From: Bispira polyomma | Lineage: Eukaryota | Length of the DNA: 64,000 nt | Reading direction: 5' to 3' | NCBI GenBank assembly: GCA_965649765.1 | Contig: OZ287751.1 | Coordinates: 43,834,001 to 43,898,000, forward strand | Part shown: piece after piece, positions 9,701 to 57,700 of the stretch | Layout of the letters: the number at the start of each line of letters is the position of its first letter | Position numbering within the stretch: the first letter of the stretch is position 1 | Program-made: the position numbers and the translations under genes | Notes under the pieces: model-generated | Database searches by the model: none | Told to the model about the DNA's origin: nothing | Seen by the model: the letters and a program-made list of their open reading frames with translations, nothing else

Positions 9701-12700
9701 AAAAAAATTATTATGCCGTGGTCACACTGAGTACGTTCGCGTTACGTTATTTTTTTGTAAACGGGAGAAAACAAAGTGAAAATCTGTGGGAAAATCGTGA
9801 AACGTAGCAAAAATCCATGTATATACGTTCAGTACGCACCTGTACATGTTTGTACACACATTTAATATGTTTTAATAGCCGTTTTAATTATGTTTAACTC
9901 GCTAGCCACGTTTTAATAATATGTTGGCATCATTAGCCACGTTTTAGAAATACGTTAGCTACGTTTCTAAACCTATTTTGTCTCGTTCTCCTCATCTTTA
10001 ATGTTTGTAAGCCTGTTTCGTTCTCCTCCTCGTTTTATGATATTATTTGTATGTATAGTTTGTTTTACTCCCGTCCTTTATGTCAAGTACGCATTAAATA
10101 CGTGTCATAGTTTTGCTGTGAACGCACTACCGGTTTGCGGAAAATTTTCAGCAAACGACTAAAGACGTAAAAAATTTCGAGCAGTCCAAAAGTTAAGACG
10201 TTTTTTTAAAAAGAGGCAATAACTAAACTTAAGGTACCATGTTTTAATTACGTTTACTACATTTTACTTATATTCGCCATTTTTTGTGCGTAATCGAAGC
10301 GTAAGGCCAGTGTGACCACGGCATTAGAGAGAATTATCAAGACTTAATGTTTTTCCAAACCTTAATGTCATATTACACAACATGTAGAATTCAAGCTTCT
10401 AGTTATTCATATTAATTGACCTTTTTGTCTGAATATTGCCCTCTAGTTTAAGTATATTAATAGTAAAGAAGTCCATTTAAATAAAGGTCAAATTTTAGCA
10501 TTCCGTTAAAACTCCACTGTCTTAATGTCTTTATTTCCTGAAATAATTTCTCTATCACTGTGGATTCAAACTTTTTGCCTGAACTTGTTGATAGGAAAAA
10601 TTACGCGAATTGAACCAGAGCTGAAGTGGAACTCAGAGTCCCCTACCATAGCAGTGACCACAACCACAAAGAAGATGAAGTGTATCTTTTCAGGAAAGTA
10701 AGATATTCATGTTCTCTTATGCTGGTGAAAAAGACATGAATATTCACATGAATATACGGTCTAGCACACTTATCTCAATCTGGAAATCTAGATTTTCTAC
10801 TTATCTGCTCAGTTGTACATTAGACACTAAAAACAAGGTGTTTATAGTGACATTAGAAGCCCTTAATTGTTGATTATATCAAGGTATTGTCCCCTAAGTA
10901 AATACATACACTGATAACACACCAGGACAGAAACTGCTAGATTTTCTGGTAAAGCTGTATTTCTAATTAGTGAAACACACATATTGTCTTCTTTATGTCA
11001 TCCTTATATTTAAGGCATATATCACTTTATAGATCACTTAGTCTGTATGAATAAAAAATGTCATACACTGCCACATCTAACATTTTGTTTTCCTGTTTTC
11101 ATTTCCTTGAAAAGCACCTTGGAAATGGAAATACACTAAGAATACAGTAGAACCTTCGAGACTTTGATTTTATGAACTCATTTCCACTCTCCTAAATTGA
11201 TGTTTTCTTGTTACAGTGATGTTTCTTCTGTTTTATGAACCTTCTTTTATATTACCAGTAGTTTACAGTGTTGAATCTTGACTAACTACATTGTAGTATA
11301 CACTGGTTTACTCCAGCACTAAAACTACTTATACAATGTGTGGAAAGCGACGTTGTATCCAAATCAAAAATTCCAAGTCCAACTCAATCATTTTAGAAAT
11401 GCTCACAATACGCAGATTAGCAATAGTGACTTCGGCTCACTGGATTTTCAGATCTCTTACCATCTTGAGCCATATGAATGTCTGCTATTGTATGCTAGTG
11501 TATCAAAACAAATAAAAAATTTAACCAATTCTGAGTATTCTCTAAATCATTGCTCATTATTTTTTTCAGTCCCACTCCAAGAATACACTGGACAATGGAG
11601 AATGGTGACCCATTACCCAGTAAGGTGAAAGTCTCCAAAACTGGACATGAAATTGAGATCCCTAACATTGACTATGATGATGAAGCTGGCTATAGGTGTG
11701 CAGCAGAAAACTCCAGATCTGATCCAAAGTCTACTTGGGTCTTCAAAGTGCTGCAGCTCAGGGTGCAATGTGAGTGTCTTCTCTATACTAGTAATACGCC
11801 ACACTTCATATAGTTCACTGTGTCTGGTATTGATTGAAAGCTTGGCCTCTAGAAACCTAGAAGGCCTATTCTAACATTATTCTCTCATGTTAGGTGAGAT
11901 TTACGAATATTGTATAGTATTCTATTATGTATTTTTAAAACACTTTAGTGATGCGAAACATCTTCTAAAGCATCTTTTAACGCATTTTTTTTCACAAACT
12001 TCCATTACAATTTTCCATTTCAGCTATTGTGGTCTACAGCACATCATGTCATATTTACGTGTTAATGACATCCTATTCACAATAAACCTATTATTAGCAG
12101 GAGTTGAACTGGGGACCTAATGATTACCAGACCAACTCCTGAACTGCTAGGCCATGGGAGACCATATGGTCTTTAGAGACAACACTTTTTAGGTGGGGGA
12201 TACCACTGTTTATGTCCGAATGAGTGGTAATTCCCTTGGTCTACTGCACACAGTTTGTATTGTGTATTGGCTATTCTTAATTGGGTGGTAATTCCCTTGA
12301 TGTGTTTAACACAGTTTGTGTTGTGTTTTATCTTTTCTTAATTGGGTGGTAATTCCCTTGATGTATTTAACACAGTTTGTATTGTGTTTTAGCTATGCCT
12401 GATTGGGTGATAATTCCCTTGGTCTACTTAACACAGTTTGTATTGTGTTTCAGCTATGCCTGATTGGGTGGTAATTCTCCGATGTATTTAACACAGTTTG
12501 TGTTGTGTTTTAGCTATGCCTAATTGGGTGATAATTCCCTTAATGTACTTAACACAGTTTGTATTCTGTTTAAGCTATGCCTGATTGGGTGGTAATTTCC
12601 TTGATGTACTTAACACAGTTTGTATTCTGTTTAAGCTATGCCTGATTGGGTGGTAAAACCTGAATCCGTAGACACTTCTGAGGAAGAAAGTGCTGAGTTC

Positions 12701-15700
12701 CATTGTGAGGCTGGAGGAATTCCCCGCCCAGAAATCTCTTGGTCCATCAATGGCGTGAGTACATAACGTACATATACTAACATTCGGCTCTGTATTAACT
12801 TGGATTTCGGTATCTACCTGAAATCTGTCTATTCAATTAATATAATAGAAGTTAGCATTAAAATGAGTAATGCTTAATTTTATGTAATTTCTGTAAAATT
12901 GTTTCAAAAAAGCCCTAGTTATTTTACTGGGGCAGGTGACAGCACTCTCAGTACTTTCCCTTGCTTTTTTGTGTGCTATCTTTTGGTTGAAAACGGCAGA
13001 AGCACTCAGGTTTACAAAAGGTAAAATGATACATCTCCCATGTATACCACATACCCCAAAATAATTTTTCTATGCTGATGACTAATGCAGTGCAGATGAC
13101 TATATCAGTTGCTGGAGAACAACTGTGTCAGAGGATGCTTTGTCAGTAATTGCTTTAGAAGTGTGTGAAGTAAACAAGAATGGTCAAAATTTTTATCATT
13201 TTTAACAAGAAAAAGCATGGATGGTGGTGAAGGCATATGTTAGCTTTGGACAGCAGTTAATTTGTTGTTGTTGTACATATCATAGGAACCTATTGAGAAT
13301 CAACCCAATGCCCGCAGAGAAATATTGAAGGGGGGTCAACTGATTAAATATACTCAAGTGACCAAGACAGATGCGGCTGTACTTCAGTGTAATGCCAGCA
13401 ACAGTCATGGATATATCTTCTACAATGCCTATCTCAATGTCATAGGTTTGTAGTAACAATGTGATGTAGAAGTAAAGTCTGAATGTGCATACATTGTTTG
13501 GTAAAGGGGGGGGGATGGACTGTTTTACTGGATTTGCATTATTCACCAAAGTACAAGCATGAGGACTTTTATTTCTATCATAAAGATTGTCTATTATGGT
13601 ATTTTCTTAAATTGTATTGTTATGACAACCCCTAAAACTTTGTTTTGAGGCTATTTGGTCATGTTCCGCCATCTTAGCATCCTTTATTCTACTAGACAAT
13701 GGACGGTAGAACTTGCGCACTGTCAGGATTTCCGTTCAATGCACACTTTTAGTCTCCATAGCAACTGATAAATCTATATCTCAGAACAGGCTGGTGACTG
13801 TATAACTAGTCATCAAAAAAACACTGATAATGTTATATATCTCAGAAAACATTAATAACTGTATAACTGTGAATAATATAACTTTGTGTCTGAGAAAACA
13901 TTGATAGCTCTCTGGTATTACAGTGTTACAATTTATAGTTTTATGTTAACTTGTAACTGAGCCCCCCACATTCATCAGTAACCATCCACTCTCTGTTATT
14001 ACAGTCTATAGTTTTATTTCCACTTGTAGCTGAGCCCCCCACATTCATCAGTAAGACTTCACTCTCTTATTACAGTCAATAGTTTTATTTCTACTTGTAC
14101 CTGACCATACCCCTAGTCATGAGTAAGCCTTCACTCTCTGTTATTACAGTCAATAGTTTTGTTTCTACTTGTACCTGATCATACCCCTGGTCATCAGTAA
14201 GCCTCCAATCAGTAAGCCTTCATACTCTGTTATTACAGTCAATAGTTTTGTTTCCACTTGTACCTGACCATACCCCTGGTCATCAGTAAGCCTTCACTCT
14301 CTGTTATTACAGTCAATAGTTTTGTTTCCACTTGTAGCTGAGCCCCCCACGTTCATCAGTAAGCCTCCACTCTCTGTTATTACAGTCTATAGTTTTGTTT
14401 CCACTTGTAGCTGAGCCCCCCACGTTCATCAGTAAGCCTCCACTCTCTGTTATTACAGTCTATAGTTTTGTTTCCACTTGTAGCTGAGCCCCCCACATTC
14501 ATCAGTAAGCCGCAGTCAGTAGTTAAGGTGGCAGAGGGCCAGGACACCACCATAGCCTGTGAGGTGTATGGGGCACCCAAACCAGTAGTGACGTGGAAGA
14601 AAGATGAGGAGGATGTGGAGGGACCCAGGTTCTCTATCAGCACATCGGGAAAGATTGTAGGAAATCTGACCATTCAGGTATTGTGGTAGATGTTTAAAGT
14701 TTGATGTAAATTATTACAACTACTAGTGACAAACTTGAAAAGTACTCAGTAGAGTCCATATCTCCACAAAGATTGTAGAAAAGTTAACTATTCAAGTATT
14801 TGTGGTAGATATTTGTAGTTTGTGGTAAATCGTAAACTACTTGGGGCAAACTTGAAGGGCTGTGCATACTTCCGCCAAGGAGCCTCAGTGCCAAATATTC
14901 ATGGATCTGCCATTCTCCCCAGACGGATACTTATGAATTTTCCCTTGGCCCAATTTGCCCCATCCTTCTAATAAATGTCATGTAAATTAGTTCTCTAGTT
15001 TTAATGTAACAAAGAAACTAACCAACGGTTATGGATGAAAACATACCGAGAGACATAATATATGTAATCTGACTTTAGTTTTAACAATAAAGTTTTTACC
15101 TTATATCTGTCACTGTATCCACCAGAGGAGTAACTCTGGTGGATACTAAGGATTAGTCGTCGTTACGTATTGGATTGTAACTGTATACTCTTTAAAAACT
15201 AGAATATGTTCTTAGTGTAAATGGTGACCCTGTTATATCAGGGCTCAATTTCTTCTAGACATTCCACTAGATTTAGCATTGGAAGACACTTGAATCTGCT
15301 AGTTATGGCAAAAGGTTTTTTAATGGACTTTAGGTGCGAGAAATTTGTACTAATTTTATACATGAATGCCGTATGCATCTTTCTGTTTATCTTTATAAAA
15401 AAATTGCGGTGTATTTTTAAACAGAGGGCTGTAAAAGCAGATGAAGGAATCTACGAGTGTTTTGCAAAAAACAAATTTGGAGAAATAGATGCCAATGGCC
15501 AGCTCATAGTCAGAGGTAATATACGAAACATTGAATAGAATGTAAAAATAAATATGTGAAATGGGAAAAAAACCCTCTAAAGATATATGTCTTGTTGTGT
15601 ACTCCTAAAGATGTACATATTACATCAAAATTTATACTTGGGCCTTTTTTGTGGTCTTTTATGTTAATCTAACATGCTGATCATGTTTATGTGTTTATGT

Positions 15701-18700
15701 TGGTATTTGTATTCATTCCCACTCCAGGTCACTTAAGTGCCTACTAGCTCCTCTGTTGACAAGTACTGGACTTTGGCTACATACTTGCACTTGTAGTGAA
15801 AGTAATAAGTTTGTAAATATTGGCCAATAGATGTGGATCATGACCTACAAGTGAACAACGTGGACATAACACATAAGACTACCATTGAATGTTTGTCATT
15901 CCTCACTCCATGTTTTAGCGTCCATAACCCACATTATTCTATATATAACACATACTCTATAACCCACAGAGAAGACGGAGATCATTGTTTTCCCCAAGTC
16001 CCAAGAGGTCCAAGCTGGAGAGAAGGTGGTGCTGGAATGTGAAGCCCAGACAGACACTAATGAGTTCAACAAACTGGTGATCTACTGGAAGAGAAATGGA
16101 GAGCGCATTGACTTTGATTCTCCAGATACCTCGTCTACGCTCAGTTTTGATACCAGAGATAACTCACTAACCATCTCAGGTAAGTGGTGTAACATTCACA
16201 CTAGATACCAGGGATAACTCACTGACCATCTCAGGTAAGTGGTGTACCATTCACACTAGATACCAGAGATAACTCACTGACCATCTCAGGTAAGTGGTGT
16301 AACATTTACACTGGATACAAGAGATAACTCACTGACTATCTCAGGTAAGTGGTGTACCATTCACACTAGATACCAGAGATAACTCACTGACCATCTCAGG
16401 TAAGTGGTGTAATATTCACACTAGATACCAGAGATTACTCACTGACCATCTCAGGTAAGTGGACACTAGTTACCAAAGATAACTCACTAACCATCTCAGG
16501 TAAGTGGTGTAACATTTACACTGGGTACCAGGGATAACTCACTAACCATTTCGGGTAAGTGGTGTAACATTTACACTGGGTACCAGAGATAACTCACTGA
16601 CTATCTCAGGTAAGGGGTGTAACATTTACACTGGATAAAAGAGATAACTCACTGACTATCTCAGGTAAGTATTCACACTGGATACCAAAGATAACTCACT
16701 GACCATCTCAGGTAAGTGGTGTAACATTCACACTAGATACCAGAGATAACTCACTGACCATCTCAGGTAAGTGGTGTAATATTCACACTAGATACCAAAG
16801 ATTACTCACTGACCATCTCAGGTAAGTGGTGTACCATTCACACTAGATACCAGAGATAACTCACTAACCATCTCAGGTAAGTGGTGTAACATTTACACTG
16901 GGTACCAGGGATAACTCACTAACCATTTCGGGTAAGTGGTGTAACATTTACACTGGGTACCAGAGATAACTCACTGACCATCTCAGGTAAGGGGTGTAAC
17001 ATTTACACTGGATAAAAGAGATAACTCACCGACTATCTCAGGTAAGTATTCACACTGGATATCAAAGATAACTCACTGACCATCTCAGGTAAGTGGTGTA
17101 ACATTCACACTAGATACCAGAGATAACTCACTGACCATCTCAGGTAAGTGATGTACCATTCACATTAGATACCAGAGATAACTCACTGACCATCTCAGGT
17201 AAGTGGTGTAACATTCACACTAGATACCAGAGATAACTCACTGACCATCTCAGGTAAGTGGTGTAACATTTACACTAGATACCAGAGATAACTCACTCAC
17301 CATCTTAGGTAAGTGGTCTGGCCTGTTTTTATCTACAGCAATGTGCCTATACACATTTAATGTACTGTTATCCATAAAGTCTTCCATCATCAAGTCATGT
17401 ACACGTTAAAATGTTTGGTCTTTATATATATCATTCAGTTGTTTCCATGCATCTGTATACGTCATGCATATCTGTGAAACATCCAGGGTGGATATGGATG
17501 GTGAAAATTGAAACAAATATTTACTTCTGTGTGATATACGTTAGAGTATATGGGGTGTATTACAGTAATTAATACTGCCAGTAATACTGTGAAATCACTA
17601 TTTGATCTATCTTCAGTTTTTAATGTTTTCAGCAGTTATGCACAAATTGGAGCTCTGTCTAAGAATACTTAGTATATATACACTGTCCAGACAGCTCTCC
17701 TGTCATGGCTATTACTTGTGTTTTATTGAGACATTCACTTGTATTTTATTCCAGGTAACATATACCTCTTTTGTAGGTGCAGCAGTTGATGACACAGCCA
17801 GCTATACTTGTGTAGCATCTAATGGACTAGACCAGGATGAGTTCACTGCAGAAATAGTCGTCAAAGGTGAGTGAGGTTCAATTACATTCTGACAATCTGC
17901 ATGTCTATCCTGCAGGTCTAAGTTTTTTATTGGATTCAAAATCTTAATGTTGTGCACCCCTGGCCCATGTATGTGCAGTATCTACTTATGAGAACCATGT
18001 GTCTGAAATACCCACTTGTCAGAACCATGTTTCTCAAGTACCTACTTATCCGAACCATGTAATACTATCTGAAGTACCCACTTATAAAAACCATGTATCT
18101 GAAGTACCCACTTATGAAAACCATGTGTCTGAAGTACCCACTTATGAGAACTATGTATCTGAAGTACCCACTTATGAGAACTATGTATCTGAAGTACCCT
18201 CTTATGAGAACTATGTATCTGAAGTACCCACTTATGAGAACCATGTATCTGAAATACCCACTTATGAGAACCATGTATCTGAAGTACCCACTTATGAGAA
18301 CTATGTATCTAAAGTACCCACTTATAAGAACCATGTATCTGAAATACCTACTTATATGAACCATGTATCTGAAGTACCCACTTATAAGAACCATGTATCT
18401 GAAGTACCCACTAATGAGAACCATGTATCTGAAGTACCCACTTATCAGAACTATGTATCTGAAGTACCCATTTATGAGAACCATGTATCTAAAGTACCCA
18501 CTTTAGTAACCATATATCTGAAGTACCCACTTATCAGAACCATGTATCTATCTGAAATAGCCACTTATTAGAACCATGTATCTGAAGTACACACCTATAA
18601 AAACCATGTATCTTAAGCACCCTCTTATGAGAACCATGTATCTGGAGTACCCTTTCATAAGAACCATGTATCTGAAATACCCACTTATAAGAGCCATGTA

Positions 18701-21700
18701 TCTGAAGTACACACTTATGAAAACCATGTATCTCCGGTACACACTTATGAAAACCATGTATCTCCAGTACCCACTTATCAGAACCATGTATCTGAAGTAC
18801 CGACTTATTAGAACCATGTATCTCAAGTACCAACTTCTGATAACCATGTATCTCAAGTACCGACTTATTAGAACCATGTATCTCAAGTACCAACTTCTGA
18901 GAACCATGTATCTGAAGTACCCACTTATGAGAATCATGTATCTGAAGTACCCACTTATAAGAACCATGTATCTAAAGTACCCACTTATGAGAACGATGTA
19001 TCTGAAGTACCCACTTATCAAAATCATGTATCTGAAGTACCCACTCTCCACTATATTTATATGACTCTGAATGTATGTGTAACATAAAGTTTATGTATTA
19101 CTCCTTAGACCGGCCCGAACCTCCTTATGATGTCTATGTACCTAGCTGTGGGTCTGAGAAAGCTGAAGTTGAGTGGGTAGCAGGCTTTGACAACAACGAT
19201 GACATCACTGAATTCATTGTGTATTACAACATGTCTTTTGATGATCCAGGCATCTTTCATGAGGCCAAGAAAGTGCCAAGTGGTAATACTGTCTTACATT
19301 TATGGAATATTTTTGTGTTAGGTTAACTAGTATCGCAATGGGGAAAATTTGATTTTAAATTAATTTATTGAATTTATTTGGGTTATACATCACTTTTAAC
19401 AGCATTGGTCATATTGTGACGGCCAGGTTTAGTGGTGGGGAAAACCAGTGCTGATGCACTGTAAACCACCAACCTATGGTAAGTACCTGACAAACTTTCC
19501 CACATGAAAAAGCCCTTTTAATAGAAAATCTGTCAAGTCGATTTCTCACGAATAAACAATATTCCACCAAGTTATATTCAATATTTACAAGCAGTAAGAA
19601 GTACATGTATATCTACAGGGTCCCATTCAGGGCAAATTAAGCACTAAATACATGCGTACAATTTGCATTGCTCTTTTGCTAATTTTAATGAAAACTCTAA
19701 ATGTAAAAACAGTACCAGAATACATTACGCCCAGAAGCACATGTTACACAAAGAATTAATGTATCTCAAATTAAGATTGAATCATTAATTTATCCATAAT
19801 TTGTCTTCTGTTCTAGCTAGTACACATACATAAGTTATTTGTGGTGTTTTTCTCAGGTATGACCAGTACTATTATTGGACTGTCTCCCTGGACAAACTAC
19901 ACATTCCATGTGAAGGCCAGGAATAGTATAGGACTGAGTGACAGTAGTGGCTTTACTGTAGCCATGTGTCAGACTTCAGAAAACATCCCCTTCAAGAGTC
20001 CCTCTGGTGTGTGTACAGAGAGCAGGGAGCCTGACCAACTGGTTATAGTGTGGGATGTAAGTGTTAATAGAACCTCTGTCATGTGAATATTCTGGTGTAC
20101 AGAACACCTGACCAGGTGGTGATAGTGTGGGATGTAAGTGTTCATATAACCTCTGTTACGTGAGTATTCTGGTCTACAGAACACCTGACCAGGTGATGAT
20201 ATTGTGGGATGTTAGTATTATACAACCTCTAGTACACAATTTTATTTAGAAAATAGAAGGTTTCTAAAATATCATAGTTATTTTAATTAAAAAAAGTGGA
20301 AAATATAAATTGGGCCGAGTGAAAATATAGTCATAAAATTAAATATTTGGTTAATGGTTAAAATGATAAATGTTCTAACTTTATAATAGAAAAGTAGGAC
20401 AGGGTATTCCATCAGTTTATTGCTTAAAATATATACAACTGTATATACAATATGTGATGCCAGTGTGATCTCTCATTTGAGCCTAATTCAATAACTGATC
20501 TGCAACCGTATTCTCTAAAAATTTTAACTCAAGCTCAAGTCTGAGATATAGCTCAGCTGAGTTTTTTTCTCAATTTCGTTTTTCTCAAACACATTTTTAC
20601 AAAGCTCAACTGAGATTTTTTTTCAGCTCAGACGCAAGTCTAGACATGTTGGCACAGATCCAAAATAACAACAGGCAAATAAATCTTACTGTTATATTGG
20701 GCCTGTGGTCACATGATCTCTTTGTTTATTTTCATTCAAGTGAAATTCTTATTACATTTGAGTCAAGGTATAGCCTTGCTCAAAGTTGAGCAAAACTCTC
20801 AACTCAAAATATTGAAGAATATAAACTGAGTTGAGATTTAATCTCACCTCAAATCTGAGCCGGTCACCGTTGCAACTGCCCAAAACTCTGAGGCCATTGT
20901 TTTAAGTATATGTTACACCTTGTTTACCAAATGCTTCTACTACTTTGTACAGCCCATGCCAAAGATTGAACACAATGGCCAGGGTTTTAAGTATGTGGTG
21001 TCCTATGAGGAAGACCGAGCTGGAGCCAGTCCTTTCAGTATGGATGTCACAGACTGGAGAGAGGGGCAGCTGGTCATACAAAACCAAGCCACATTTACCA
21101 AGTATAAAATCTCTGTCGCGGCAAAGAACAACTTTGGGTCAGCACCATCTCAACAGCTGGAAGTGCACTATGGCTACTCTGGAGAGGATGGTATGTAAAC
21201 ATGGGGTTCAAATCACTGAATGGTTGTAATGAGCCATTGAATTGTTGTAATAAGTGGTTGTAATAAGTCACTGAATGGTTGTAATGAGCCATTGAATCGT
21301 TGTAATAAGTGGTTGTTATAAGTCACTGAATGGTTGTAATGAGTCACTGAATGGTTGTAATGAGTCACTGAATGGTTGTAATAAGTCACTGATTGGTTGT
21401 AATAAATCACTAAGTGGTTGTAATTAATCACTGAGTGAAAGGGACTTAGCCAGGTCTTAGGCTTAAATCTAGCACAAAAGTATACTGAATTAAGCCTAAG
21501 ACCTGGCTAAGCCCTTTCGTGAATACGGCCCCTGACCAAAGACAGAGGCTTAAGAAGGAGCATAATGTTCTTTAGTCTTCCACTGGGGTAGGACTCTGTG
21601 ACTGAGAACACCACCATTTTAAGTGGTCATCCGGGCCACCCTGTATCTTCCTGTACCTGGTTATCCCAGGCTGGAATATTGTGCATTCTTAAGCAAGTGT

Positions 21701-24700
21701 GTTCTCCAGATTTTAGATACCTTTTTTGTTTACAAAGATATATATCATGATATATTAGGAAATATTCCGGTTTCAGTTTGTTTTTCACAAGCGTTCCTTT
21801 AAATTTATTTCACCCATTTACATGATTTATATGAAGCATTATTCTTCTGCAGAAGGCAATGGTGTGTTCACATCTTGCCCAAAGATGTTAGCCCCCATAA
21901 AATATGGTACTACCTTAATGTTGATCCAGATTTTTTGATCACCAGATCAACTCCTTAACCTCTGGGCCAAAGGAGACTACTACACATACAACTTTAAAAA
22001 ACTCATTTACCCTTACGACCCCTATGTTTTCTACAAGCAGTCAACACCCTAAAAATATTTGATATTTTCCTTTAGTTCCTCGCAACAAGAAATTGTTAAT
22101 ACAGCAGGTGTGTGTTTTAGTGACTACAACTATCTATAACCTATTACCCTCAGTTGCTGGCAATAGTTTTCTCTTGGGGTCAAAAGGGTTACCAATCAGT
22201 TATTTTCGTTCATTCCTATTGAAGAATGTTGTTGACTTGTATTTCAGTCCCAACTTTGAGTCCACAGGACTTTGCCATTGTTGAGGATTCCATAACTGCA
22301 ACAAACGCCACATTTATGTGGCAACCTGTAGATGCCTATGATCCCGGCATTAACGGATTCTTCAGGGGTTACAAGGTATGTTGTTGTATTAAGGATGAGT
22401 CATAATACAGGTGTTTAAGGTTGTCATGATTATGTATCAGATAAATACACAGATTTGACGTTTTATTGTATTACAAGTTCAGAATTTAAAAAAGGCAAAG
22501 ACACTAATGAGCCATTTACATATGAATAAAAAATGTTTATGTTGTTTTCAGTAAAAATCTATATCTTTATAGACAAATATGGTCAAGTATATAGAATACA
22601 GTTGTTGTACAGTGAAATCCCTTTAAGTAGAACTCAATTAAGTTAATTTGTGAAAGTATGCCTCCAAAAAAGTGGTAAATGCCTGGTATATCCATGGTTA
22701 TATTTATGTATACTGTAAATGTATGATTGGCCTTGAGCTATCAAAGTACAAAATAAATTTCTTATTCTTGTACCTTTTGAACCAATCAGGATTGCGGATA
22801 CAGAATTCCATTTTACCATATTTTTAAAACCAATCGGAATTTAGGACACAGAATGAGATCTACATAACTCTGCTGTTTTTAGTTTGTGTCCTTGATCCAC
22901 ATTAGATTATACTCTATAATTAAAGCCAGCATTAAGGACACAGAATTACAGTTTTTCAGGAGGTCTGTATAAAGTGTTGTAACTGTTTAGATGGTGTACT
23001 GGATCAGTGGTACAGAAGAGAAGCGCTACAAGGAAGTCATTCTACACGAGTTTGACCCCTGCCCTCTGGTGGCATCCTCCAACAACAACCGCGGCAAGAG
23101 GCAGAGCAGCTACGATTACTACGATGACGTAGACATGGATGTGACCGATCTCTGGCCATACTCCACCATCACAGCAGGTGTCATGGTACTGAATGGTGGC
23201 AAAGAGGGGAAGATGAGTGACACCATCGAGTTCCAAACTCCGGAGGGAGGTGAGCTTAAACAAATTTTTACAGTGGGTTAAATTGTTTACAGTGAGTTAA
23301 ATTGTTAAGAAGACCAGACAAACTCTCTTCACTGAAGTGGGATTTTCTAGTAAAAGAAAGGCTTTGATATGAACACCTTAACATTCAACTAAGGGACATG
23401 AAAAAACCTGATGTTTGAAAAGACAGACACCATAATATCTCAAGCTTTCAGAGAAACAACTGGTCACACTGCCACAAATCTGAAATTAAAAAATGCATAC
23501 AAATGTATGTAACATGCTGAATTTCATACATTGCCAATACAGTAGACTCTGTATAAGTCTAATGTGCAATATCCATAAAAAATAGTTCAAATTACCCTAA
23601 ATTCGACTTATAATTTAGGGAGGGGAAGGGATGATGACCCTCAAAATTTCAGTGGTTTTACAGTCTTGTAGTACCAATGAACCATATTTTTATACCATAT
23701 TCATACCATATTTTTCTAAAGTACCCTTAAAACACATTAACTGTTTAGAAGATTGTAACCATACCTTTTATTGTCTAAATAAAAATAATTTAACATTGGT
23801 ATCCATTATTATCTGTCCCTAAATTCACTTTATTTCTTGGTAAATGTGATGACCTGTATTTGTGAAGCACTCGTAAGATTTACTATAAAGATTAAATCTC
23901 TCCCGTGGTTTTGTAGGGTAAAGTATACAGATTCAAAGTTCCCCATATATAAAATGCTTAAATAATGGTTTTTTGGCTTTTCAACTTTAAAATACTACAT
24001 TTAGAATACCATAAAGACAGCCCAGGTTATATTTAAGAAGGTTTATTTCTTACAAAGGAACTTAAAATCCCCCACCCTAATTGCACTTTAATGGATAAAA
24101 AAAAAAAGAGGTATACAGTTTGTTGGCGTCAGCGGATTTTATGCAAATTATGCCCCCCCATATTGTCTAGTAAAACACATAAAATTCAAATGCTATTTAA
24201 GGTAAGTTTTATGTGTTATTTGATGGCTAAAAGTGTTAAGACATCCAATTACCCTTAAATACAAGGCTGACACCTCTACTACAGCCAGTCTTTTAACAAA
24301 AGCCCCATTGAAGTGAGAGGCCCAGTAAGCCGGTACACGAACAACAATAGACACATATAACCCCTTGTCTAACAAATACGCTCTTGTCTCTGGTTCGAGT
24401 CATGCTGTCAAAAAGTGACATAAAATCACATCTTGTGACCTGATATTAGGTTCGATTTATACCTAATTTTATGGATTGACCTTCGAGTAATACCTTGTAT
24501 TTGCATTAAAAAATGTTGGGACTTTAAATAAGGTTCGATTTATGGCAAAAATTGAGTTCTAGTGAACCGAGTTACACAGAGTCTACTGTACACACATATA
24601 CTCCAAATATTAGCCTCAATCATGTGCAGTTGTATTCCTTTTCTTATAAATGAACAAAATTTACCAGGCTTTTTGCTTTTTTCCCAAAAAGTATTTAACG

Positions 24701-45700: not shown

Positions 45701-48700
45701 GTTTTTGTATGTTTTGGAAATAAAATAACATAACACATCATTTTTTCTTCTTCTGAAATGAACAGCACTTCTCTTTAAAACATTGACATAACTATTTTTC
45801 ACGAGTGAAATTATGGCATGTGCAACACCGTAGATTAGATAATATAAAACATTAATTTCAGGGATGTACAAAATGAACAGCACTGAATATGTATGATGAA
45901 TTCTGAGAAGGTTTTCTGAGAACATCCAAAATATCAAGAAATAATCATATTTTTATATTGTGAAAGCACTTTCAAGTAAAAATCTGGAACTAACTTTTGG
46001 ATTGTGTGGAAAGTAGTAGGGTAAAGGGAAAAAATTGGGTAAACTAAATGTAACTGTGTGGTGATTGATGGTGAAAGCTGTTCACTAATAATGACACCTG
46101 TATTGAAACTGAATATAATAATGTTTAACGAGTTGCTTCTAATATTACAAGCAGATACAGATACAAAATGTAGTTGGTCCCACAAACAAAGGGGGCTTTT
46201 AACCAGCTTTCCTTGTGCCTTAATTGCTTTGAATAACAATAGTCTGCATTTTTTCTGTTGGTTTTCTTAATTTATTTGCTTTATTCTATTAAACCAAAGA
46301 TGCTGTGTTTCTTTAATTTCGCATTTAAGTATTTTTTCTTTGGGTTATGTCTTGTATCAGTATGTTAGTGATATGTATTCAAAACAGGTCTAAAAAGAGG
46401 TAAGTCCTATAGTTACTAAGACATCTTCTAATCTTACATAAGTAATGTATTAATTATATTCCAGAAGATTAAAATTTCTTAAACTTATAATGTGTTAGAA
46501 ATAGGTCACAGTATTATTTGTATTCATAGTTAAATTTACTCTCTGTGCATTTATCTACCTTTGTCTGGTATTCAAAGTACTGATTCACTTTATTGTCGCT
46601 GCTAAAAGATGGCCAACTAGCACCAGTAACTGCCATTCCCCTAACTGTACCAGGAAATGCTTGGGCTAGGGTTGAACCCAAGTCTTCTGCATTTCTAATT
46701 AAGTGTGTTGCCCATTACGCCACATTGGCATAGTTTTCTCATCTCTTATTTACAGTTTGCATTGGGTTTTAACGATATGATGATTTAAGACAAAATTTAA
46801 TGTCAATTTTCTTTATGGGCTGATTTGAGTTTTGAAAATATAATCATTAAAATTCTAAACTTCATGCAAACTTTGTGTTGTGTCTGTATAGTTCATTGTT
46901 TTGTAATTCACTTAAAGTTATAGGGAATCCGTGAGATTGTTGTGTAAACCAGCTGTCTTAACCTGTTTGGCCTTGTTATATATCAATTTACTGCATTGGT
47001 CAATGTTTACAGACAAATCCCAGGATAATAAACAAATAAAAATAGCCTGGTTTGGTGACTTTTTGACCTTTAAACCTCCACATTGTGGTCTGTGAAAATT
47101 GTGGAGACTTGTATATTGTTAGACAAGTCCAAGTTTGAAGACTTTTGTGTTGATGGTTTTGTTATTATGTTATAGTCTATAATTTTTAAAGGTATTTTTT
47201 ATATAAACATATTAGTATACTTATTCTACTCTGCTTAACCTTACATCCATTAAATAGTGCTAGTCAAATTTCAAGAGCTGCCATTCTATGAATATTTTCA
47301 TCTTTTTAAAAGTAATAAATTTTATTACATAGTTATATTATTTAGACCAAGAGTCCACCAATGAGGATCAAGTTAAAGATGTATAATTTCAGAGACAACA
47401 TTAAGCTTGTGTTTTTTATACACACAACCTCAACATACATAACCATTTTGTCTCTGTTGTCAGAATGGAGTAAAGAAGTAAAATATCCATTTGGACAATA
47501 AAAATGTTATGCAATATTAATAAGAAATGTATTATGTTCATATGATATCAAACTCTAGGGACTATAAGCTTTGGGTTAGACGTCTAAAAGTAAATCAAAT
47601 TCACAGAAAACATATCTTTTACCTCTTGTATCTAGATTAAAACCAATCTACAGATATTTCTATTGTATGGCCTTCTTAAAAGCAGTAATTTGCTTTTTGC
47701 ATGGCTCAGACAAATATACAAATGCTAAGGTGTTTTTTAAAAAGACCCTTGTTGGTTTGTTGATGTAGCTATATATTTAAAAGACAAAACCCAGGCAACA
47801 CTTGATAAACAAGTGTCAGTATCTGAGAACTGCTTACATTGGACATCTGGATATACAACAGCTCAACACCTTCATCATGGACACATCATGAATATTAATA
47901 CAAGTCGACTAATACTCACTTTACTAGCCCATATATTATTTTAAAAGATTGATACTTTGCATATTACAAATACTTATTGAAGGTAACATATGTAATAGAT
48001 TTCTAGATATATATAGTTGGTACTTTGCATCTGTATAAAGCACTAGTGTTCTTACTTTATGGTTTAGACTGATCTCGAAGTAATCTAGTTTAAGGTTACC
48101 TCTTAAATTGAGCATTATCTCCTCTATTCAACTGTTTCTTTTAATGGTGGATGAAAAAGAAACCCATCATCTGAACCAAACTTAATTACATTTAATTGTC
48201 ATTATTAAAAACCTGTTATAAAAGGAAATAATTAATTCTTTGAACAACAAAACTGGTGGTTTTGATCCCAGTCTCAGTTGTTTAAAAATGCAACCTTTGT
48301 AGTTAACAACAATATGGGCAGCTAAGTGTGAGTTTAAGGTTAGTAGGGTGACTACATACAGTGTAGTGTGTGAGTAGCCATCACCCTCTGTAGTATTAGA
48401 AGATGCTAGCAGTCCATTAACACTGTGTTTGTAGGAGATCCTTATCTCTGGTCAGTTTACATTAGCAGTTTCCCTACCAGCTTTGTGTATCTTTTTACCA
48501 GTTTGTCCATTCTTTATAGTGCAAAGGAAACCTTACTGTATTCCACCCAGTAGTAACCGCTCAGTAGCAAACACTACTTTGGGAGTTTTCTGGTATTTTT
48601 AAGCAATGAATATTATGTTCAAAACATACTATTCTGTTTCCAGTAATAAAACTTTGTCTTATGTGTTAAAATAGTTGTTCCCTACTATTAAGTATTACAC

Positions 48701-51700
48701 AAATTAACCCACAAAAATCTAAATTTATTACAATCATATAAGTGGACATTTTCATAATTACACAAGAAATATAAACTGTTAAGACCTTATTAGATAAATG
48801 ATTATAAGCTACATGTAAAATTAGAAGTATGTATTCTATACAAGTTGTAACTTATATTTTCCCCACAAAATAAGGAAAATCTTAAAGAGCCCAAGTGCTC
48901 AATTCTGTGGAATATGGTAATTTAGCCTTTAGTAGTAGGTCAGCCCTTACTGTATCTTAGCAGTGTGATACAGTTGTTAATCCATAGATTCCTGCATTAA
49001 GTGTGATTAGTAAAATCTACTTCTAGCTTATTTATCAGAATTGCCACTATTAGTGCTATTTCTTCTAACTTCTGTGTATTTAAGAAGTTAAATATTCACT
49101 CACTGAACTGACAACTATTGGACTATTTAGGATTTATATTGACATTTAGAAAGTGGAGGAATTGATCGGTTCACTAATCTTTATCACCAGAATGATCAAT
49201 GAGATTGATATGTACACAGTACAGTCAGGTGATGATGATATATCTGCCGAAGTCACAAGCACTGACATAACATATTCTTCATTTGCTTCAAATGTGTATC
49301 AGAGACACAGCACAGTAGCGTCTTCGGTGGATCTAATTGCTAATGAAGAGACATTTGACATTACTAATGACTTTACCATTATGATCTCTGACAAGGGACC
49401 ATACAGTCCTCCAGTATATGGTCGGACCAGTTCGACCCTGCCCAGTGTTGTTGATGATGAGTTTGATAACACTGGTAAGGTAACAGGGAGTAGTTCTGAT
49501 GTTGATTTCAGTGGGAATATGGTTAATATGTTTGCAGGACCCACTAAAACCCACCTGGCCTCAGCGGGATGGTTTATAGCTCTGATGTGTGCCATCATCT
49601 TCTTACTTCTCATCTTGTTGATTGTATGCCTGATTAGGAGGAACAGAGGGGGCAAGTATCCAGGTCAGTCACAAACCTAGTTGTGTACCATCGGGAATTC
49701 AACTATTTCCGGCCTGTCTCATATTTTTGGCCTATAATGCTTTTATTATTTTATATAAAGCTTAAATTATTGGTAAAGTGAAGATAAAATTAATGTTTTC
49801 TGTATTTTCTATAAAAAAAACAATGGCTGGTGAGCTATGTCATTTTATTACTTGGTCATGATAAGAGGCCAAAAATACGGTGAAATTTTGAAACAAGACT
49901 TTTAGCATTTTAAATTGTTCTATACTGTAATTGTATCCAATCTGAAATGTTTAAAACAGCTTAAAAAACAATAGTATTATGATACAAGTACAGTAGAACC
50001 TCTATTTTACTGTCATCTTGGGAGAGTGAGAATTTGTTTAGATAATAAAAGGTCGTAAAATAGAAGTGGCATTTTGGTATAAAACAATAGCAAAAAAAAA
50101 AGGTTTGGGAGAATAAAATTAAGTTTGTAAAATCGAATCTTCGGATAAGAGAGGGTCGGATAGTAGAGGTTCTACTGTATACACTATTAAAATGATTATT
50201 TTTTTATAGAAGCTGTGTCATTGCTTTCTAAAGATGTAATTATCTTGGGTTGTAAATGTCTATGGACTAAATTAATTGTTAAAACGTTCTTTTTTTGTTT
50301 CGTTACAAAAGTTTAAAAAAATTGTGGTCCCATGTGACCTGTTGGTTATAGGATGTTGATCTGGTGATCAGGAGGTCTCTGGTTAAAGATTCTACTTGAC
50401 TTTTAGAATTATAATCAAATTATGTTAACAAGAGGATGTATTTGTATGTATATAATGATTACTCAGTGTGTTTGTGAAGCCTGTTAATTTCCCTTTTATG
50501 TGGAAAAACCTTTAACCTCACAAAGGCCTTTTCTTTCAAACTTGACCTTGTTTTGGTAAAAATCCTGTTTTAGTAGAGGTACTTCCCTAAACCGTCAAGA
50601 TTCGACTTAAAGAAGTTCAACGGTAGTTATAGACATCAGTAAGGTTAGAAGCAGCTTGAGTTAATATGTGTATTTTGTAAAATAGATCATAAGTTTATTA
50701 TACAAGTAAATCTCTGTCTATAGGTTTGAATCAATAGATTCTTTATAGTATTTGCCACTTGTTTTTTTCCATTGTACTACACATGGTTGAGGACAATTTT
50801 TGAACATAGGACAATTCTGGACAAAATTTAAAAAACTACTGCAACAAAAAAAGAATTAGAAAGAAATGATCATTGATAATCAGGTAAATACTTTTCCACT
50901 AGTTCTCCTTTTTATATTTGATTTTTGAAGCTTGTGTGCTATAGCTTCCAGAATTGCCTTATGTCCAGAATTGCCCTCACGGGTAGAGTATTTTAGTAGA
51001 TGTATAAAAACCGCTGATATGAGTAATGCTTTAAGGTTTGAACATGCCTTTCCATGTGTTTTCAGTGTATGAGAAGGAGAAGCTGCGTGGTAAGAACCCA
51101 GAGGATGAAGAGGAGAACTTTGGGGAGTACAACAACAAACAGTGAGTGTTTTATGTATAAAAAGATTGATTGGCAAGTAGGCAAAATCAAAATGATTAAA
51201 TGAAGCCTTTTCACAGGAAGAATTATGTTCAAAATCATTCCTCTGCCATGATTAATCTACCTCAGGTTATTTTAGGAAAGAATAAGAATACCTAGATTAT
51301 GATGTAATCTCATTTTGTTAGTGCTAATATTAATGGTCAGATGTATTACAAGTTAAAAAGCTATTCACCTGGGATAGAGGGGGAGGCGAAGTACCACTAT
51401 TAGAAAGCTTAGTCCATGGCAGTATTATCTGTCTACAGTAGATATGGTAGATTCTGTACAAGTTAAATGTCTAGCATCCTTTGGATTTAATTCTACTTAA
51501 TCTGCCTAAACTTAACATTTACTTAGTCAAACAGTAAAATTTGGATAACAATTGCTTAATTTGTAGTAAAATTTTACTAGAACTCGATGTACTTATACAA
51601 AGTCTACCATATTGACTGAGAAGAAAGAATTAGTTGACTATTGTACACAGATAATGAAATATACAGATTACTTTGAATTAATTTTGAAAGCTATATTGCA

Positions 51701-54700
51701 TTGTAAATTTGAGCTTTAGTGCCACTGAGTGTATTTTTTGTGAAGCAATAATATAAATATTTTAATGTTGTTTTGTGCACCCCAAGATTAAGTTCTTTCA
51801 GTTTATTCAATATTTTACCAGTATATTTGAGTTCAATATTTTTGCAGCCATGTTGTGTGTTAGAGGTATAAAATTTAACCTGTAAGTTTCTAGATGTTAA
51901 AGAGGGCCACGGTGGCCTAGTGGTTAGCAAGCATTGCGCTTTACAATCACTGGTCTCTCGCCTCTAGGCGGTGTGAGTTCGACTCTCGTCGATGCCTATG
52001 TGGGAAAGGTGGTAGTTCCTTACTGTGGGCCGCTGGTTTCAGTGCAGAACCTTGATCAACTGTATGCAGTGTTTCCTCCAGCGTTTCCAACTACCCGTCC
52101 CAATATAACCTAAACAGGTACTAGAGTGGACGTTAAATATCCCAATTCAAATTTAAATTCTAGATGGTTAAATACTTATGCCAAAAAAGAAACCAATATT
52201 TTAGAAATAAATAGCTTACGAAGAAGAACATTTCTTTTTTAGTCCAAATACCATGACTATCCCTTCTAAATGCCCCCCCACCCAACACACATTCACCTGT
52301 TAATTTATTTTTGGGATAGTTATAATATGTACAATTTAAAATTCACACCACTTTATCTCTTGAAAATTCTACCAGCACTGACACGTTGTACCATTTCTGA
52401 AGTTAAGAGCAGTGTGAACAAACTCGAGAAATGTCAGTCTAGTCATTTTAAATTTTACATTAAAAAAGAAGTGTAGGAGAAGCAGAATGATATTGATGAC
52501 AATAGATACATGTATATATGATTTTTGTGCATGACGCTTTCCTGATATTTTACTGGGAATTTTTATGGCAGCAAGAGCAGACATGCAATGGTCTTGTTTT
52601 AGTACATTATGATTGCCTTGCTTTCCTGAAAATTCTTGTATGTGTATAAAGGAAAGCCATCTTTAAGTATGTGTGCTTGTAAATACAGTAGCACTTGAAT
52701 TATCTAAACATTTTCGACTCTCCCAAATCACATTTTTCTATTGTTTCATACTAAAATGTAAATTTATGAACCTTCTATTATCCAAACGAAATCTTGCTCT
52801 CCCAATTTGTTCAGATAATAGAGGTTCTACTGTATACACAGCTATACACAGAAGGAGTTGAAGCAAGTCTAGTCAAAGTGTAAAACATACAGTCCACATT
52901 TGACAATATATATCTGTGTCTGGAACACTTGTTTGTTGTCCAGCTTTTGATGTATTGTTTTCTTGTTCTATGATTTTTTGTTTTGTTTCCTTCTAAAGAC
53001 CATACATGCCATTGGAAACCAAAGGGTAAGATATACAGCACCACCATCTGGTGGAAGTAGCCCTGCATTTTATTCAGTTTCCCTGCTTTATGTCGATACT
53101 CTAATAGAACACTGTGTAGTTTTTAGTATACATCAGATTTGGTATAACTCTATTTGGTATACAGTCATTCCAGACAAAGAATCAGTTCCATGTGCACATG
53201 TTTACTACAACCTCTATTTTATGAAGTTTTGTTGTCTTAATATTTGATGAACAAACACCCTTTCATTCTCCCAAATTTGAATTTTCTTGTTCCTTTAAAC
53301 CAAGGTGCCTCTTGTATTTTATAACCCTTCTATTGTCTAAAGAATATCTTTTTCTCCCAACCTATAAAGTATTACTGTCAAACACTTTTTGGTAGAACTG
53401 TTTGAAGTCATTTCCCTTTGAAATAAAGAATACTTTAAAGTCCCCAAATAGGCTTCCTTCTTTGTTTAAATCGACAATGTTAAGTAGAAATCCTGCTTTA
53501 AGTTTAGGTATTTCTTGTGGTCCCTCAAAGTCCGATTTACAAGGACTCCAACTGTATTTACACATTGGCCTAGTCACTTAGAGATGCTAAAGGACCTGGG
53601 TTTGCTCCCAGTCTGAGGTTTCCAAGTATGACCTAGTCCTGTAAGTTCTGATCACTATTCTTACTAATTCACAAGTGTAACCTACCATTATTTTGTACCA
53701 GTGCACAAGGGACTGTTTGATACTCCTATACCAAATCTACTGTATAAAGACAAACTCTTCTCAACCAACACCACCGCCTACAACCTTGCTTTTTTTCTAA
53801 CTCACTGCTTTATTCTTGATAGTATCAAGCTCAGCTTAGATTTATGCATAAAAATGAGTTTAAAAAAAGTATTTTTCGAAATTTAAAAAAAAATTTAAAA
53901 TGTTTTAGTGATACTTTTAGTTTTACTCAACACTTGAATTTAACAGACGTTCAAATCATGATTCCATTCATGGAAAATGTATATATTATTCAGAATTCCT
54001 TATGTTTCTAGTTTCAGTGAGGTTAGGGCTTGATAACTTGAAGAATGAACTCAATTCCTTATTATGTTGTTGTTTTTCCTGGGTACAGTTTGTTTTTATT
54101 GCACAACACCTTATTGCTTTTGCAGTCACTACCTCTTTTAATGTACAGTCAAACCCCTTTAAGTCAAACTCTGGAATTACCTGTTAAGTAGAAGCTATTA
54201 TAAGGTCCATTTGCTATATTTCTAATTTAAATTTACCTTGTTAAGTGTTAAGTGCTTAGTTTATGATAGAAAGTACTTAAAGTCACATTGAAATTTGTCT
54301 CATTAAAAATCAAAAAGTAAAGAGGTTCACTAACAGTTCCTGTGTTCTCCATTATATTAGCACCAAACATTAACCTTATAAGATGGCCTAACACTTGGTA
54401 TGTCTCTTCCACTGATATAGTACCTCATGCTGAATACCCCCTCATGCTGTTGTTGTTGCTCTTTTTACAGTTTTCTACATAACTACCAACTTGATCAAAT
54501 AACATGCTAAAAGAGTGTACACTTTAACTCTGTTATTGACATCCAAATTAAATGTACACGCAGACTGATAATAAAGGATGGACTGTTTTGAAATATATGT
54601 TGATAGACTTACCATTTGTAGTAAAATGGAAATTATTTTTGAATTTTAAAAAAGAAGAAACGCATTATTCTATATTCAAAATTCATATGATTTTTGATGC

Positions 54701-57700
54701 ATTAGTTATAACATTAGTACTTTTGCTTTATATTTTAATGGATACACGTTGTGAACTTCTGGATATTTAGAGCACAAGGAACCAAAATGTAGTAGCCACT
54801 TATTTGTAATTTACCAAATACAGAAAAGTATGGGTCTGAATCAAGAGAAAATTAATTATCATAAATCAATTTCTTGTGGTAACAAAAAACACACTAAGTT
54901 TGGGTCTAAGTCTTAACTTAAAGTCTTAATTTTGGTGTTTAATTTTGGCCGAAAAGTTGAAGATTTTGGTCTTAGTCCCAGTGACAATAAGAAAATATCT
55001 TTATTTAGTGTTAACTTGCTCTTAATATTAAGACTAACAGCAGGCAGTCTTGAATATTTTAGACATAAAAGGCTTTCACAGACCTTATTAGGTGACAAAC
55101 GTCAGATATGTGCGTATAGTACAACTTCTATTGTATAAATATATAATTATTTATGAACTCTCCAAAATTTATGTTTTCTATTGTTTTACACTAAAATAGC
55201 TGTTCTATTTGATAAACCTTCTATGATCCTAGCTAAATCTTGCTCTTCCAACATGTTTGGACAATAGAGTTTCTAGATCTGTTTCTCCTTACATTTCTGT
55301 CATTGTATATGTTGTTACAGTGATGAGCCACGTAGCTATGCTGCCCCTCCTAAAAACCTGCCACCAAATAACATAGACGATGAGCAGCCACTAGGGGGCA
55401 GTGAGTCCGACAGTATGGCAGAGTATGAGGACACAGACCCAACTAAGTTCAATGAGGACGGATCCTTTATAGGTAAGTGTATAGTGAGTGATAATAGGTG
55501 TATATAAACACACAGACCCCACTAAGTTCAATGAGGACGGATCTTTTATAGGTAAGTGTGTACTGGGTGATAATAGGTGTATATAAACACACAGACCCCA
55601 CTAAGTTTAATGAGAGCCGATCCTTTATAGGTAATTAAGTGTGTATAGTGAGTGATAATAGGTGTATATAAACACACAAACCCCACTAAGTTTAATGAGA
55701 GCTGATCCTTTATAGGTAAGTGTGTATAGTGAGTGATAATAAACACAGAGACCCCACTAAGTTTAATGAGGACTGATCCTTTATAAGTAAGTGTATACTG
55801 GGTGATAATATATAGGTGTGTACAAACACACAGACCCCACAAAGTTCAATGAGGACGGATCCTTTATAGGTAAGTGTATACTGGGTGATAATAGGTGTAT
55901 ATAAGCACACAGACCCCACTAAGTTTAATGAGGATGGATCTTTTATAGGTAAGAACATGTGTATAATTGGTGATAATAGGTGTATATAAACACACAGACC
56001 CCACTAAGTTTAATGAGGACGGATCTTTTATAGGTAAGTGTGTATAGTGAGTGATAATAGGTGTATATAAACACACAGACCCCACTAAGTTTAATGAGGA
56101 TGGATCCTTTATAGGTAAGTGTGTATAGTAGTGATAATATGTATATATAAACACACAGACCACACTAAGTTTAATAAGGACAGCTCCTTTATAGGTAAGT
56201 GTGTATAGTGAGTGATAATAGGTGCATATAAACACACAGACCCCACTAAGTTTAATAAGGACAGCTCCTTTATAGGTAAGTGTCTATAGCGAGTGATAAT
56301 AGGTGTATATAAACACACAGACCCCACTAAGTTCAATGAGGACTGCTCCTTTATAGGTAAGTGTGTATAGTGAGTGATAATAGGTGTATATAAACACACA
56401 GACCCCACCAAGTTTAATGAAGAAGCGCCTTTATAAGTAAGTGTATACTGGGTGATAATAGGTGTATATAAGCACACAGACCCACTAAGTTTAATAAGGA
56501 AGAATCCTTTATAGGTAAGTGTATACTGGGTGATAATAGGTGTACATAAACACACAGACCCCACTAATTTCAATGATGACAAATCCTTTATAGGTAAGTG
56601 TGATTATAGGTAAGCTGACCGTTTCCACCCCTATAAGTTGGCGGCTAGCAGCCCACTACATTTCTTACTCCCAGAGCCTATGTCTGTCGGAAAGCAGTCA
56701 ACACCCCTCAACCTATGCCCCATCTCTCCAATACATTCAGTAGATTTCGCGTCATCCTGTTGACAAACAAAGAAATAAGCCAACCAAACAAAGTATATAA
56801 ATTAGAAAATTTTATAAACTCTATAAAAACCTATATAATTCTTTTTATAAACTCTGTAAAAACCTATATAATTCTTTATAAAATAATAATGTTTAGAATA
56901 TTTTGTCACCATGTGTAAATGTTGTCTGTGTACATCCTAAAATATTGAAATTATGTAACAACAGTTGTTGTGGTACAAAGGTGTTATAGTTCTATAGTAT
57001 TGAGAGAAAAGTATATACGTCATGTGTAGAATGTGTATCTCTATGGAAATAATAACAACAGGAACTCCTTGAGGCAGATAATAAATATATAACATTTAGA
57101 TGTACATGTATATATATGTTACAGGCCAAATTAAAATCCAGTCAGATTTTAAATCCACCTAGGCGAGATTAAAAGTCTAATCTCGCCTAGGCGGAATTAA
57201 AATTTCAAGGTTTGTCTAATAGAATTTATTCTTGCCTAGGCGGATTTAAAATCTGCTTAGACCAAACTAAAATGTTGATTTTGTCTAGGCGAGATTAAAA
57301 TAAGGGGAATTAAAATGTCACATTGAGGCAAATTTTTATTATTTCATTCATGTATGCAGTAAAAGTATGGATAACAACCTTAAAATTTAACCTATTTTAT
57401 TTCTTTATAAAGAACTTTCCATTCATGGTTCAAAACATTAATTCATTCATGGAATATAGTAATTGCATTAATTATTAACATCATTTCTTTATAAAGCACT
57501 TTCATTCATGGTTTAAAACATTAATTCAGACACTACCAAGTGCTACCAAATCATTCCTGAGCACATATAAAAAAAAAAAGTGCACCAGGAAAGTCTTGAA
57601 GGATTACCAGTATGGAATTTTTGAAAATGCATACTCACACAGTGTAACTAATGTTTGTATTTATAGGACTGTATGGAGGCAAGAGAGATTCAACCATTCA

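Follow-up and report, generated by a model that had tools for sequence, protein, structure and literature searches.

Tandem arrays that copy an exon–intron boundary into the intron, termed mirage minisatellites, have been described in amphioxus at Adh3, at the globin genes BflGb6 and BflGb9, and at troponin C and PGBD5 (PMC3087553, PMC3902484). The available text of these papers deals with single loci, calls the mechanism unclear and proposes the arrays as raw material for intron gain (PMC3087553, PMC3902484), and splicing is reported there not to be disturbed (PMC3087553). A similar arrangement is described, in the accessible part of the report, for intron 7 of human F7, where the first unit of a 37-bp variable-number tandem repeat spans the boundary and is followed by identical, functional and unused donor pseudo-sites, only the most upstream donor being used (PMC1557585). 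For human genes in segmental duplications, the part of the paper available to us lists variable internal tandem repeats at exon–intron boundaries and 27 intron modifications (PMC2812944). Mirages have so far been regarded as an oddity confined to a handful of loci in amphioxus, and our literature search, which could not reach most subscription journals, found no genome-scale count. Here we analyze a 64,000-nucleotide stretch of the Bispira polyomma genome (C4:43834001-43898000; the window), in which a neuroglian/L1CAM-type gene carries such copies at nine junctions, together with an independent sample of other genes. The arrays are real and belong to this known kind of element; what is new is the measured excess at exon edges, which is robust, and the finding that the decoy splice sites are filtered by geometry yet not purged. 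Mirages are junction stretches of ~20–150 bp that have been tandemly duplicated into the intron; they are over-represented at junctions, several-fold beyond what target size or base composition gives, likely through preferential birth and expansion at exon edges, and are likely tolerated since the exon-side copy would stay in use.

The window belongs to an assembly of 1.035 Gb in 75 contigs. Splicing the 25 exons of the host gene in silico gives a single open frame of 1,141 amino acids, whose product has Pfam matches to Ig, FN3 and Bravo_FIGEY and one membrane span, recognized as a hydrophobic stretch. Ig domains, FN3 domains, a single span and a Bravo_FIGEY tail are together the features of the L1CAM/neuroglian family. 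The protein is 36–41% identical, over nearly its full length, to two full-length neuroglian-type proteins, and its alignment to relatives runs uninterrupted across the eight junctions singled out in a preliminary description of the window. Among named proteins, the tail exon matches one from a bivalve best (65%). The FN3 exon at 22991-23248 gave no match as a homologue query and only generic FN3 clusters in an atlas look-up. From the reading frame and the alignment to homologues, we infer that the terminal splice site alone would be used at these junctions.

All eight junction copies listed in the preliminary description are present, either as arrays called by Tandem Repeats Finder (TRF) or as single copies, and a ninth, absent from its list, lies downstream of donor 25698 (Table 1). 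In total, the window holds five donor and four acceptor cases. The description had also stated that the coding copy is always terminal, that the arrays grow into the intron and that the units are unrelated to one another. These statements are borne out: at all nine junctions, the terminal unit on the exon side carries the coding site, and no unit with a period of at least 50 bp has a match beyond its own array. The two decayed single copies are also well above chance, with alignment scores of 97 for the copy of donor 14678 (shuffle maximum 54) and 67 for the copy of donor 25698 (shuffle maximum 36). As expected of mirages, the units span the boundary, occur on both donor and acceptor sides, keep most AG/GT dinucleotides, are unrelated between loci and are of minisatellite size.

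Table 1. Host gene and junction-derived copies in the window
Feature	Position in window	Strand	Details
Host gene, neuroglian/L1CAM type	590..57740	+	25 exons plus one duplicated alternative exon; 5′ exons upstream of the window
Acceptor mirage, 61 bp × 7.1	12224..12656	+	TRF; real acceptor 12636 (AAG, 4.6 bits)
Acceptor mirage, 73 bp, ~8 copies	13912..14511 (TRF 13935-14511)	+	Real acceptor 14484; AG in 3/7 decoys
Donor 14678 with one decayed copy ~118 bp downstream	14650..14856	+	3.8 bits (copy) vs 6.3 bits
Donor mirage, 55 bp × 21.7	16149..17317	+	TRF; real donor 16180; GT in 21/21 decoys
Donor mirage, 77 bp × 2.6	20030..20232	+	TRF 20030-20230; real donor 20057
Acceptor mirage, 59 bp × 5.1	25240..25543	+	TRF; real acceptor 25533; AG in 4/4 decoys
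Exon end and donor 25698 with decayed copy 25836-25918 (ninth case)	25659..25918	+	GT of the copy lost
Acceptor 26534 with one upstream 81-bp copy	26397..26541	+	Real unit has an internal 19-bp duplication
Donor mirage, 81 bp × 14.6	55431..56612	+	TRF 55431-56602; real donor 55473; GT in 14/14 decoys

Read unit by unit, seven window arrays retain AG/GT in 49 of 55 copies (donors 37/37, acceptors 12/18). In the array at 12224-12656, three decoys outscore the real acceptor (7.2–8.8 vs 4.6 bits), and the two farthest copies are without AG. The loss of AG from some acceptor copies, noted in the preliminary description, is seen as TAG to TAC/TAA changes at 13957, 14101, 14175 and 14264; as a trend it is not supported, since decoy GT/AG vary no more than their neighbors (see below). 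Use of any tested window decoy is predicted to lead to a premature stop, which in the last donor array comes just 13 residues early. The real donor of that array splits a codon just past the F-I of what we take to be the ankyrin-binding motif of the tail.

The interspersed fraction is 0.00 in six window junction arrays, compared with 1.00 in a 145-bp array at 6296. Transposon-borne tandem repeats were rejected as an account of the junction arrays, whose units and flanks are not shared with dispersed copies. The array at 6296-7035 (145 bp × 5) is, unlike them, a member of a dispersed repeat family. Three other large arrays, at 17965-19045, 21213-21434 and 31274-32657, start 22–99 bp from a donor and contain no exon sequence.

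An assembly artefact is extremely improbable. Units differ by 5–15% and form nested higher-order periods, and separately assembled Logan contigs (three runs of one study) show 0 differences where they bridge the 77-bp array and where they cover the larger part of the arrays of 61 and 73 bp; they also enter the 59-bp array from both ends. The runs possibly derive from the assembled animal, and so may be the assembly's own source, and the comparison covers these four arrays rather than the two of 1.1 kb, so that copy numbers are provisional. The contigs, all of this one study, list no alternative alleles at the compared arrays.

Within the window, 6 of the 10 locus-specific intronic arrays span a junction, where 0.96 would be expected. 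However, the window was picked for this pattern, and the real test is therefore an independent sample. We selected 22 regions (1.6 Mb) by Pfam/NCBIfam homology, 19 with dynein heavy-chain genes and 3 with MRP genes; most came from a search with the dynein family AAA_6 (97 matches), since of the 389 candidates in the MRP family search only 6 received a score. Introns were predicted with a profile-based spliced aligner built for this analysis, and 598 of the 935 predicted introns passed a confidence filter (337 were dropped), giving 1,196 junctions. An exon from one of the MRP genes shares 79% identity with proteins of bivalves and gastropods. Arrays cross 124 of the 1,196 junctions (10.4%), with no significant preference between donors (67) and acceptors (57; p=0.42), and the MRP regions alone have arrays at 11 of 96 junctions.

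Measured against the target size of one founding unit, junction placement is well above chance. Specifically, 121 of the 249 locus-specific arrays with a period of at least 20 bp span a junction, compared with 32.7 expected, a number reached in 0 of 20,000 simulation runs; a null drawn within each array's own intron gives 57.4 (z=10.9). The odds ratio is 6.2 (4.5–8.7 by gene bootstrap). Array density is ~200 per 100 kb for units starting 10–60 bp inside an exon and ~16–36 per 100 kb more than 60 bp into the intron. Almost all spanning arrays of this period range (121/123) are not interspersed. Composition accounts for ~1.5-fold: the prediction is 1.3-fold from GC and 1.5-fold (1.1–2.0) from a dinucleotide model for which 54 truly intronic units served as training set. 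Furthermore, 18 of 128 non-spanning "intronic" arrays turn out to be copies of the adjoining junction that have been displaced from it (null fraction 0), and reassigning these, together with one array at a missed exon, raises the count to 140/249 and the odds ratio to 8.5. These 18 orphaned arrays, from the dynein and MRP regions, lie up to ~2.8 kb from the exon, insertions having split the mirages.

The excess also holds in uniform arrays and in two-copy ones. Among arrays with at least 95% matches, 21 of 37 span a junction (5.2 expected), as do 10 of 30 two-copy arrays with at least 90% matches (4.3 expected). For periods of at least 40 bp, orphans included, the excess is 4.6-fold in two-copy arrays and ~20-fold in longer ones. 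Because it is already present at two copies, grows in longer arrays and holds in the most uniform ones, both founding and growth would appear to be biased toward junctions.

Several observations weigh against this interpretation. When bases rather than arrays are counted, 7 of 52 exon edges in the window lie in arrays, compared with 14–15% of random positions, which is no excess, and in the sample the share of junctions in arrays, 10.4%, is close to the 9.1% of intron bases occupied by arrays that span no junction (p=0.068). There is also no excess for periods of 10–19 bp (1 spanning vs 2.4 expected) or for two-copy arrays of 20–39 bp (1 vs 1.9). The rate is heterogeneous among genes (chi-square p=0.002), four regions having no locus-specific case. 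Interspersed repeats were masked against 1.66 Mb only, so low-copy mobile DNA is left in the denominator and the odds ratio is to some extent an overestimate. The gene models come from our own aligner rather than from RNA, one kept intron hiding a missed exon, and the sample is limited to two gene families. Within genes, how conserved an exon is has no predictive value for mirages (p=0.76; for the exon edge, p=0.056), and no variant letters are listed in 3.6 kb of contigs, which lends no support to haplotype divergence as a trigger. Microhomology at the breakpoints points neither way: array ends carry an overhang of 3–12 bp in 12 of 93 arrays, and the 12 of 47 seen among near-integer arrays is above a blunt-duplication null (p=0.0004) but below the 16.5 expected under uniform erosion.

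The base-coverage figures would suit purely random tandem duplication followed by selection, with no bias whatever, since in neither the window nor the sample is that null rejected. Base coverage is, however, the wrong null, because a junction can lie in the terminal unit only, where selection confines it. When both terminal units of all 289 non-spanning arrays are used instead, 4.1% compares with the observed 10.4% (p=2e-20). The target-size results likewise contradict unbiased duplication, unless the denominator consists mostly of mobile DNA that escaped masking, and we consider such duplication very improbable. Enrichment over random placement, which the preliminary description had proposed as its own test, is clear per array in this sample (121 vs 32.7) and does not appear by base coverage (p=0.068).

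Selection has nevertheless left its mark. No donor unit retains fewer than 6 nt of intron (0/63, 6.6 expected), and few acceptor units retain fewer than 18 nt (5/55, 14.7 expected). The geometry of the surviving units is thus shaped by selection, in that the full donor or the pyrimidine tract is kept. This filter is sufficient to make the coding copy terminal, with no need for a special mechanism. Acceptor units have a longer median period than donor units (66 vs 49 bp, p=0.0003). In within-gene permutations, donors with mirages are stronger (p=0.004) and exons with mirages are longer (p=0.01 and 0.002). Filtering alone cannot exceed the target-size expectation, and the excess is ~6-fold; therefore, junctions must in addition be favored when arrays arise, grow or are retained. 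The preliminary description had offered a junction-biased mechanism or filtered random duplication as alternatives, and both appear to act.

The decoys themselves were analyzed in 106 of the 121 junction-spanning arrays. GT/AG is intact in 427 of 467 decoy copies, and in 72 of the 106 arrays a decoy is as strong as or stronger than the real site. Use of 409 of the 427 intact decoys is predicted to lead to a premature stop. Selection against the decoy dinucleotides was looked for and not seen: they are mostly intact and vary neither more nor significantly less than adjacent bases (0.044 vs 0.069, p=0.34; 0.047 vs 0.066, p=0.19). These properties fit neutral copies that are passed over because of their position, as experiments on human F7 have shown for donors (PMC1557585) and as may hold for acceptors.

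It is very unlikely that the arrays are selected regulatory devices whose decoys tune splicing or decay, or that they actively give rise to new exons. The largely intact GT/AG would suit such a role, some units carry an acceptor and a donor together, and 10 of 99 nearest intact decoys would preserve an open frame (6.6 expected among 29 in frame). However, the dinucleotides are not significantly more conserved than their neighbors, unit length modulo 3 is unbiased (50, 41 and 33 of 124 for remainders 1, 2 and 0), and the opposite splice signal is no commoner in units than in matched controls (23/56 vs 37%; 16/53 vs 26%). One example of paired signals is in a dynein region on the minus strand (C6:53485001-53555000), where a 67-bp × 7 acceptor mirage contains an exon-derived donor-like site and every copy is a complete pseudo-exon.

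The excess could in part reflect what happens after birth. If duplications arose uniformly and deep intron DNA turned over, an exon-anchored array would keep one non-decaying unit, shielded from deletion, and so persist. Consistent with this possibility, the excess rises with copy number, interspersed repeats make up 32% of intron DNA, orphaned arrays are seen to be split by insertions, and arrays without exon sequence reach about three times the density in the 40 bp next to a junction (26 arrays in 44.6 kb) that they have more than 100 bp away (69 in 355 kb). On the other hand, junction arrays are slightly more uniform rather than more decayed (87.6 vs 85.4% matches, p=0.03), and the excess peaks in the most uniform class and persists in two-copy arrays with at least 90% matches, although homogenization could mask true age. 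Retention near exons could contribute to the excess, but uniform birth with retention as the whole explanation seems to us rather unlikely.

Another possible origin of the bias is breakage linked to transcription or chromatin at exon edges, through nucleosome borders, polymerase pausing or methylated-base repair, rather than recombination between haplotypes. Donors and acceptors are affected symmetrically, the rate doubles for exons longer than 165 bp (from 6–8% to 14%), and all sampled coding regions are CpG-depleted (observed/expected 0.22–0.58), mirage exon edges more so (0.17–0.20 vs 0.29–0.35). This CpG deficit, however, is limited to the unit and ~20 bp around it, has no matching TpG/CpA gain and no focus on silent positions, and intronic arrays also avoid CG, GC and AA, which looks like a general composition preference. 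An excess of sense-strand donor motifs in deep arrays likewise comes mostly from orphaned mirages and one missed exon. We regard such breaks as a rather unlikely explanation. Two narrower candidates were set aside: methylation repair as the source of the CpG deficit, given that arrays in general show much the same preference in composition, and a donor-motif driver acting on one strand, whose signal is largely that of orphaned mirages and the missed exon.

Per-gene rates show no significant correlation with telomere distance, repeat share, GC or coding CpG, while intron CpG (observed/expected) gives rho −0.55 (p=0.015, one of seven tests). Four divergent dyneins, on C5 (30.27 Mb), C6 (20.5 and 59.8 Mb) and C2 (76.4 Mb), have arrays at 2 of 194 junctions and few intronic arrays; that these genes are nearly free of mirages suggests a regional or expression-linked rate.

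Preferential birth and expansion at exon edges, combined with tolerance of the arrays through the exon-side copy, would account for these results as follows. Each array is made from its own junction, as its locus-specific units show, and the survivors, as the unit statistics show, keep a complete donor or pyrimidine tract beside an intact exon, so that the coding copy is terminal and the array intronic. Growth may then proceed by ordinary slippage or unequal exchange. As the cause of the bias, we favor, as a hypothesis drawn from general minisatellite biology, recombination or repair that begins inside the conserved exon and, at the exon's edge, slips out of register on re-annealing. By analogy with human F7, splice choice would depend on where a site lies and on its exon context, not on its strength, and the occasional use of a decoy would yield premature stops, the transcripts being cleared by nonsense-mediated decay. 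The arrays are most likely near-neutral debris.

A stronger version, which we advance only tentatively, is that in this genome short duplications arise and expand at junctions at 4–6 times the rate given by target size and composition, that ~1 in 10 junctions has intact, unpurged copies of itself alongside, and that acceptor choice routinely ignores stronger upstream twins. If so, mirages would be a mutational signature that exon edges bear across the genome, and would offer, for every 600 introns, a natural library of more than 100 experiments with duplicated splice sites. With a rate near 10% of junctions, well above target size, the origin of mirages becomes testable, as a question of where short duplications form. 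The arrays also provide natural tests of splice-site choice, since identical or stronger decoys lie 20–150 nt away from the real sites at either end of exons. In genomes of this kind they can lead gene prediction and read mapping astray.

The host gene has other features of unusual structure. Two Ig exons, at 590-721 and 5727-5870, are duplicates, both in frame with the remaining gene, and are candidates for mutually exclusive splicing. An 11.6-kb open frame (33268-44937, with an exon at 49150-49474) comprises 3,874 codons from 33315, with 29% Ser+Thr and 69 N-glycosylation sequons; its first 1,000 residues have no Pfam match. Entered through a weak phase-1 acceptor at 33268 or 33277 and left through a donor at 44706 to the 49150 exon, it would give an in-silico continuous neuroglian of ~5,060 amino acids with a mucin-like stalk ahead of the membrane span, and translated to its own stop it would yield a secreted form. 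The suggestion in the preliminary description that boundary arrays may have given rise to the duplicated exons and the giant exon finds no support: no unit matches either Ig exon or the 11.6-kb frame, and the Ig exons are whole-exon copies 5 kb apart. At 17755-17777, the in-frame acceptor 17777 is preceded, at a distance of 22 nt, by an AG that runs directly into a GT; use of this AG breaks the frame, and it is a possible cryptic or recursive site.

Compared with the mirages described in the available text of the amphioxus papers (PMC3087553, PMC3902484), the arrays analyzed here are likewise tandem copies of either exon–intron boundary, with units of tens to ~150 bp, and many but not all copies keep AG/GT; between-unit identity is given as 81–100% for amphioxus. 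In contrast to those single-locus reports, the frequency (10% of junctions) and the excess over target size are measured here. Length polymorphism and silent decoys were demonstrated in amphioxus, whereas here decoys are predicted to be silent from the reading frame and the homologue alignment. As far as the accessible description goes (PMC1557585), human F7 is one locus and has the donor side only, and so accounts for silent donor decoys but not for acceptor decoys: at the latter, unlike in F7, the most downstream site would have to win, even over stronger copies. The repeats in human segmental duplications, as presented in the consulted part of that report (PMC2812944), resemble the arrays here in being minisatellite expansions at boundaries, but they alter the gene structure of paralogs, with RNA support, whereas the arrays described here leave the frame unchanged.

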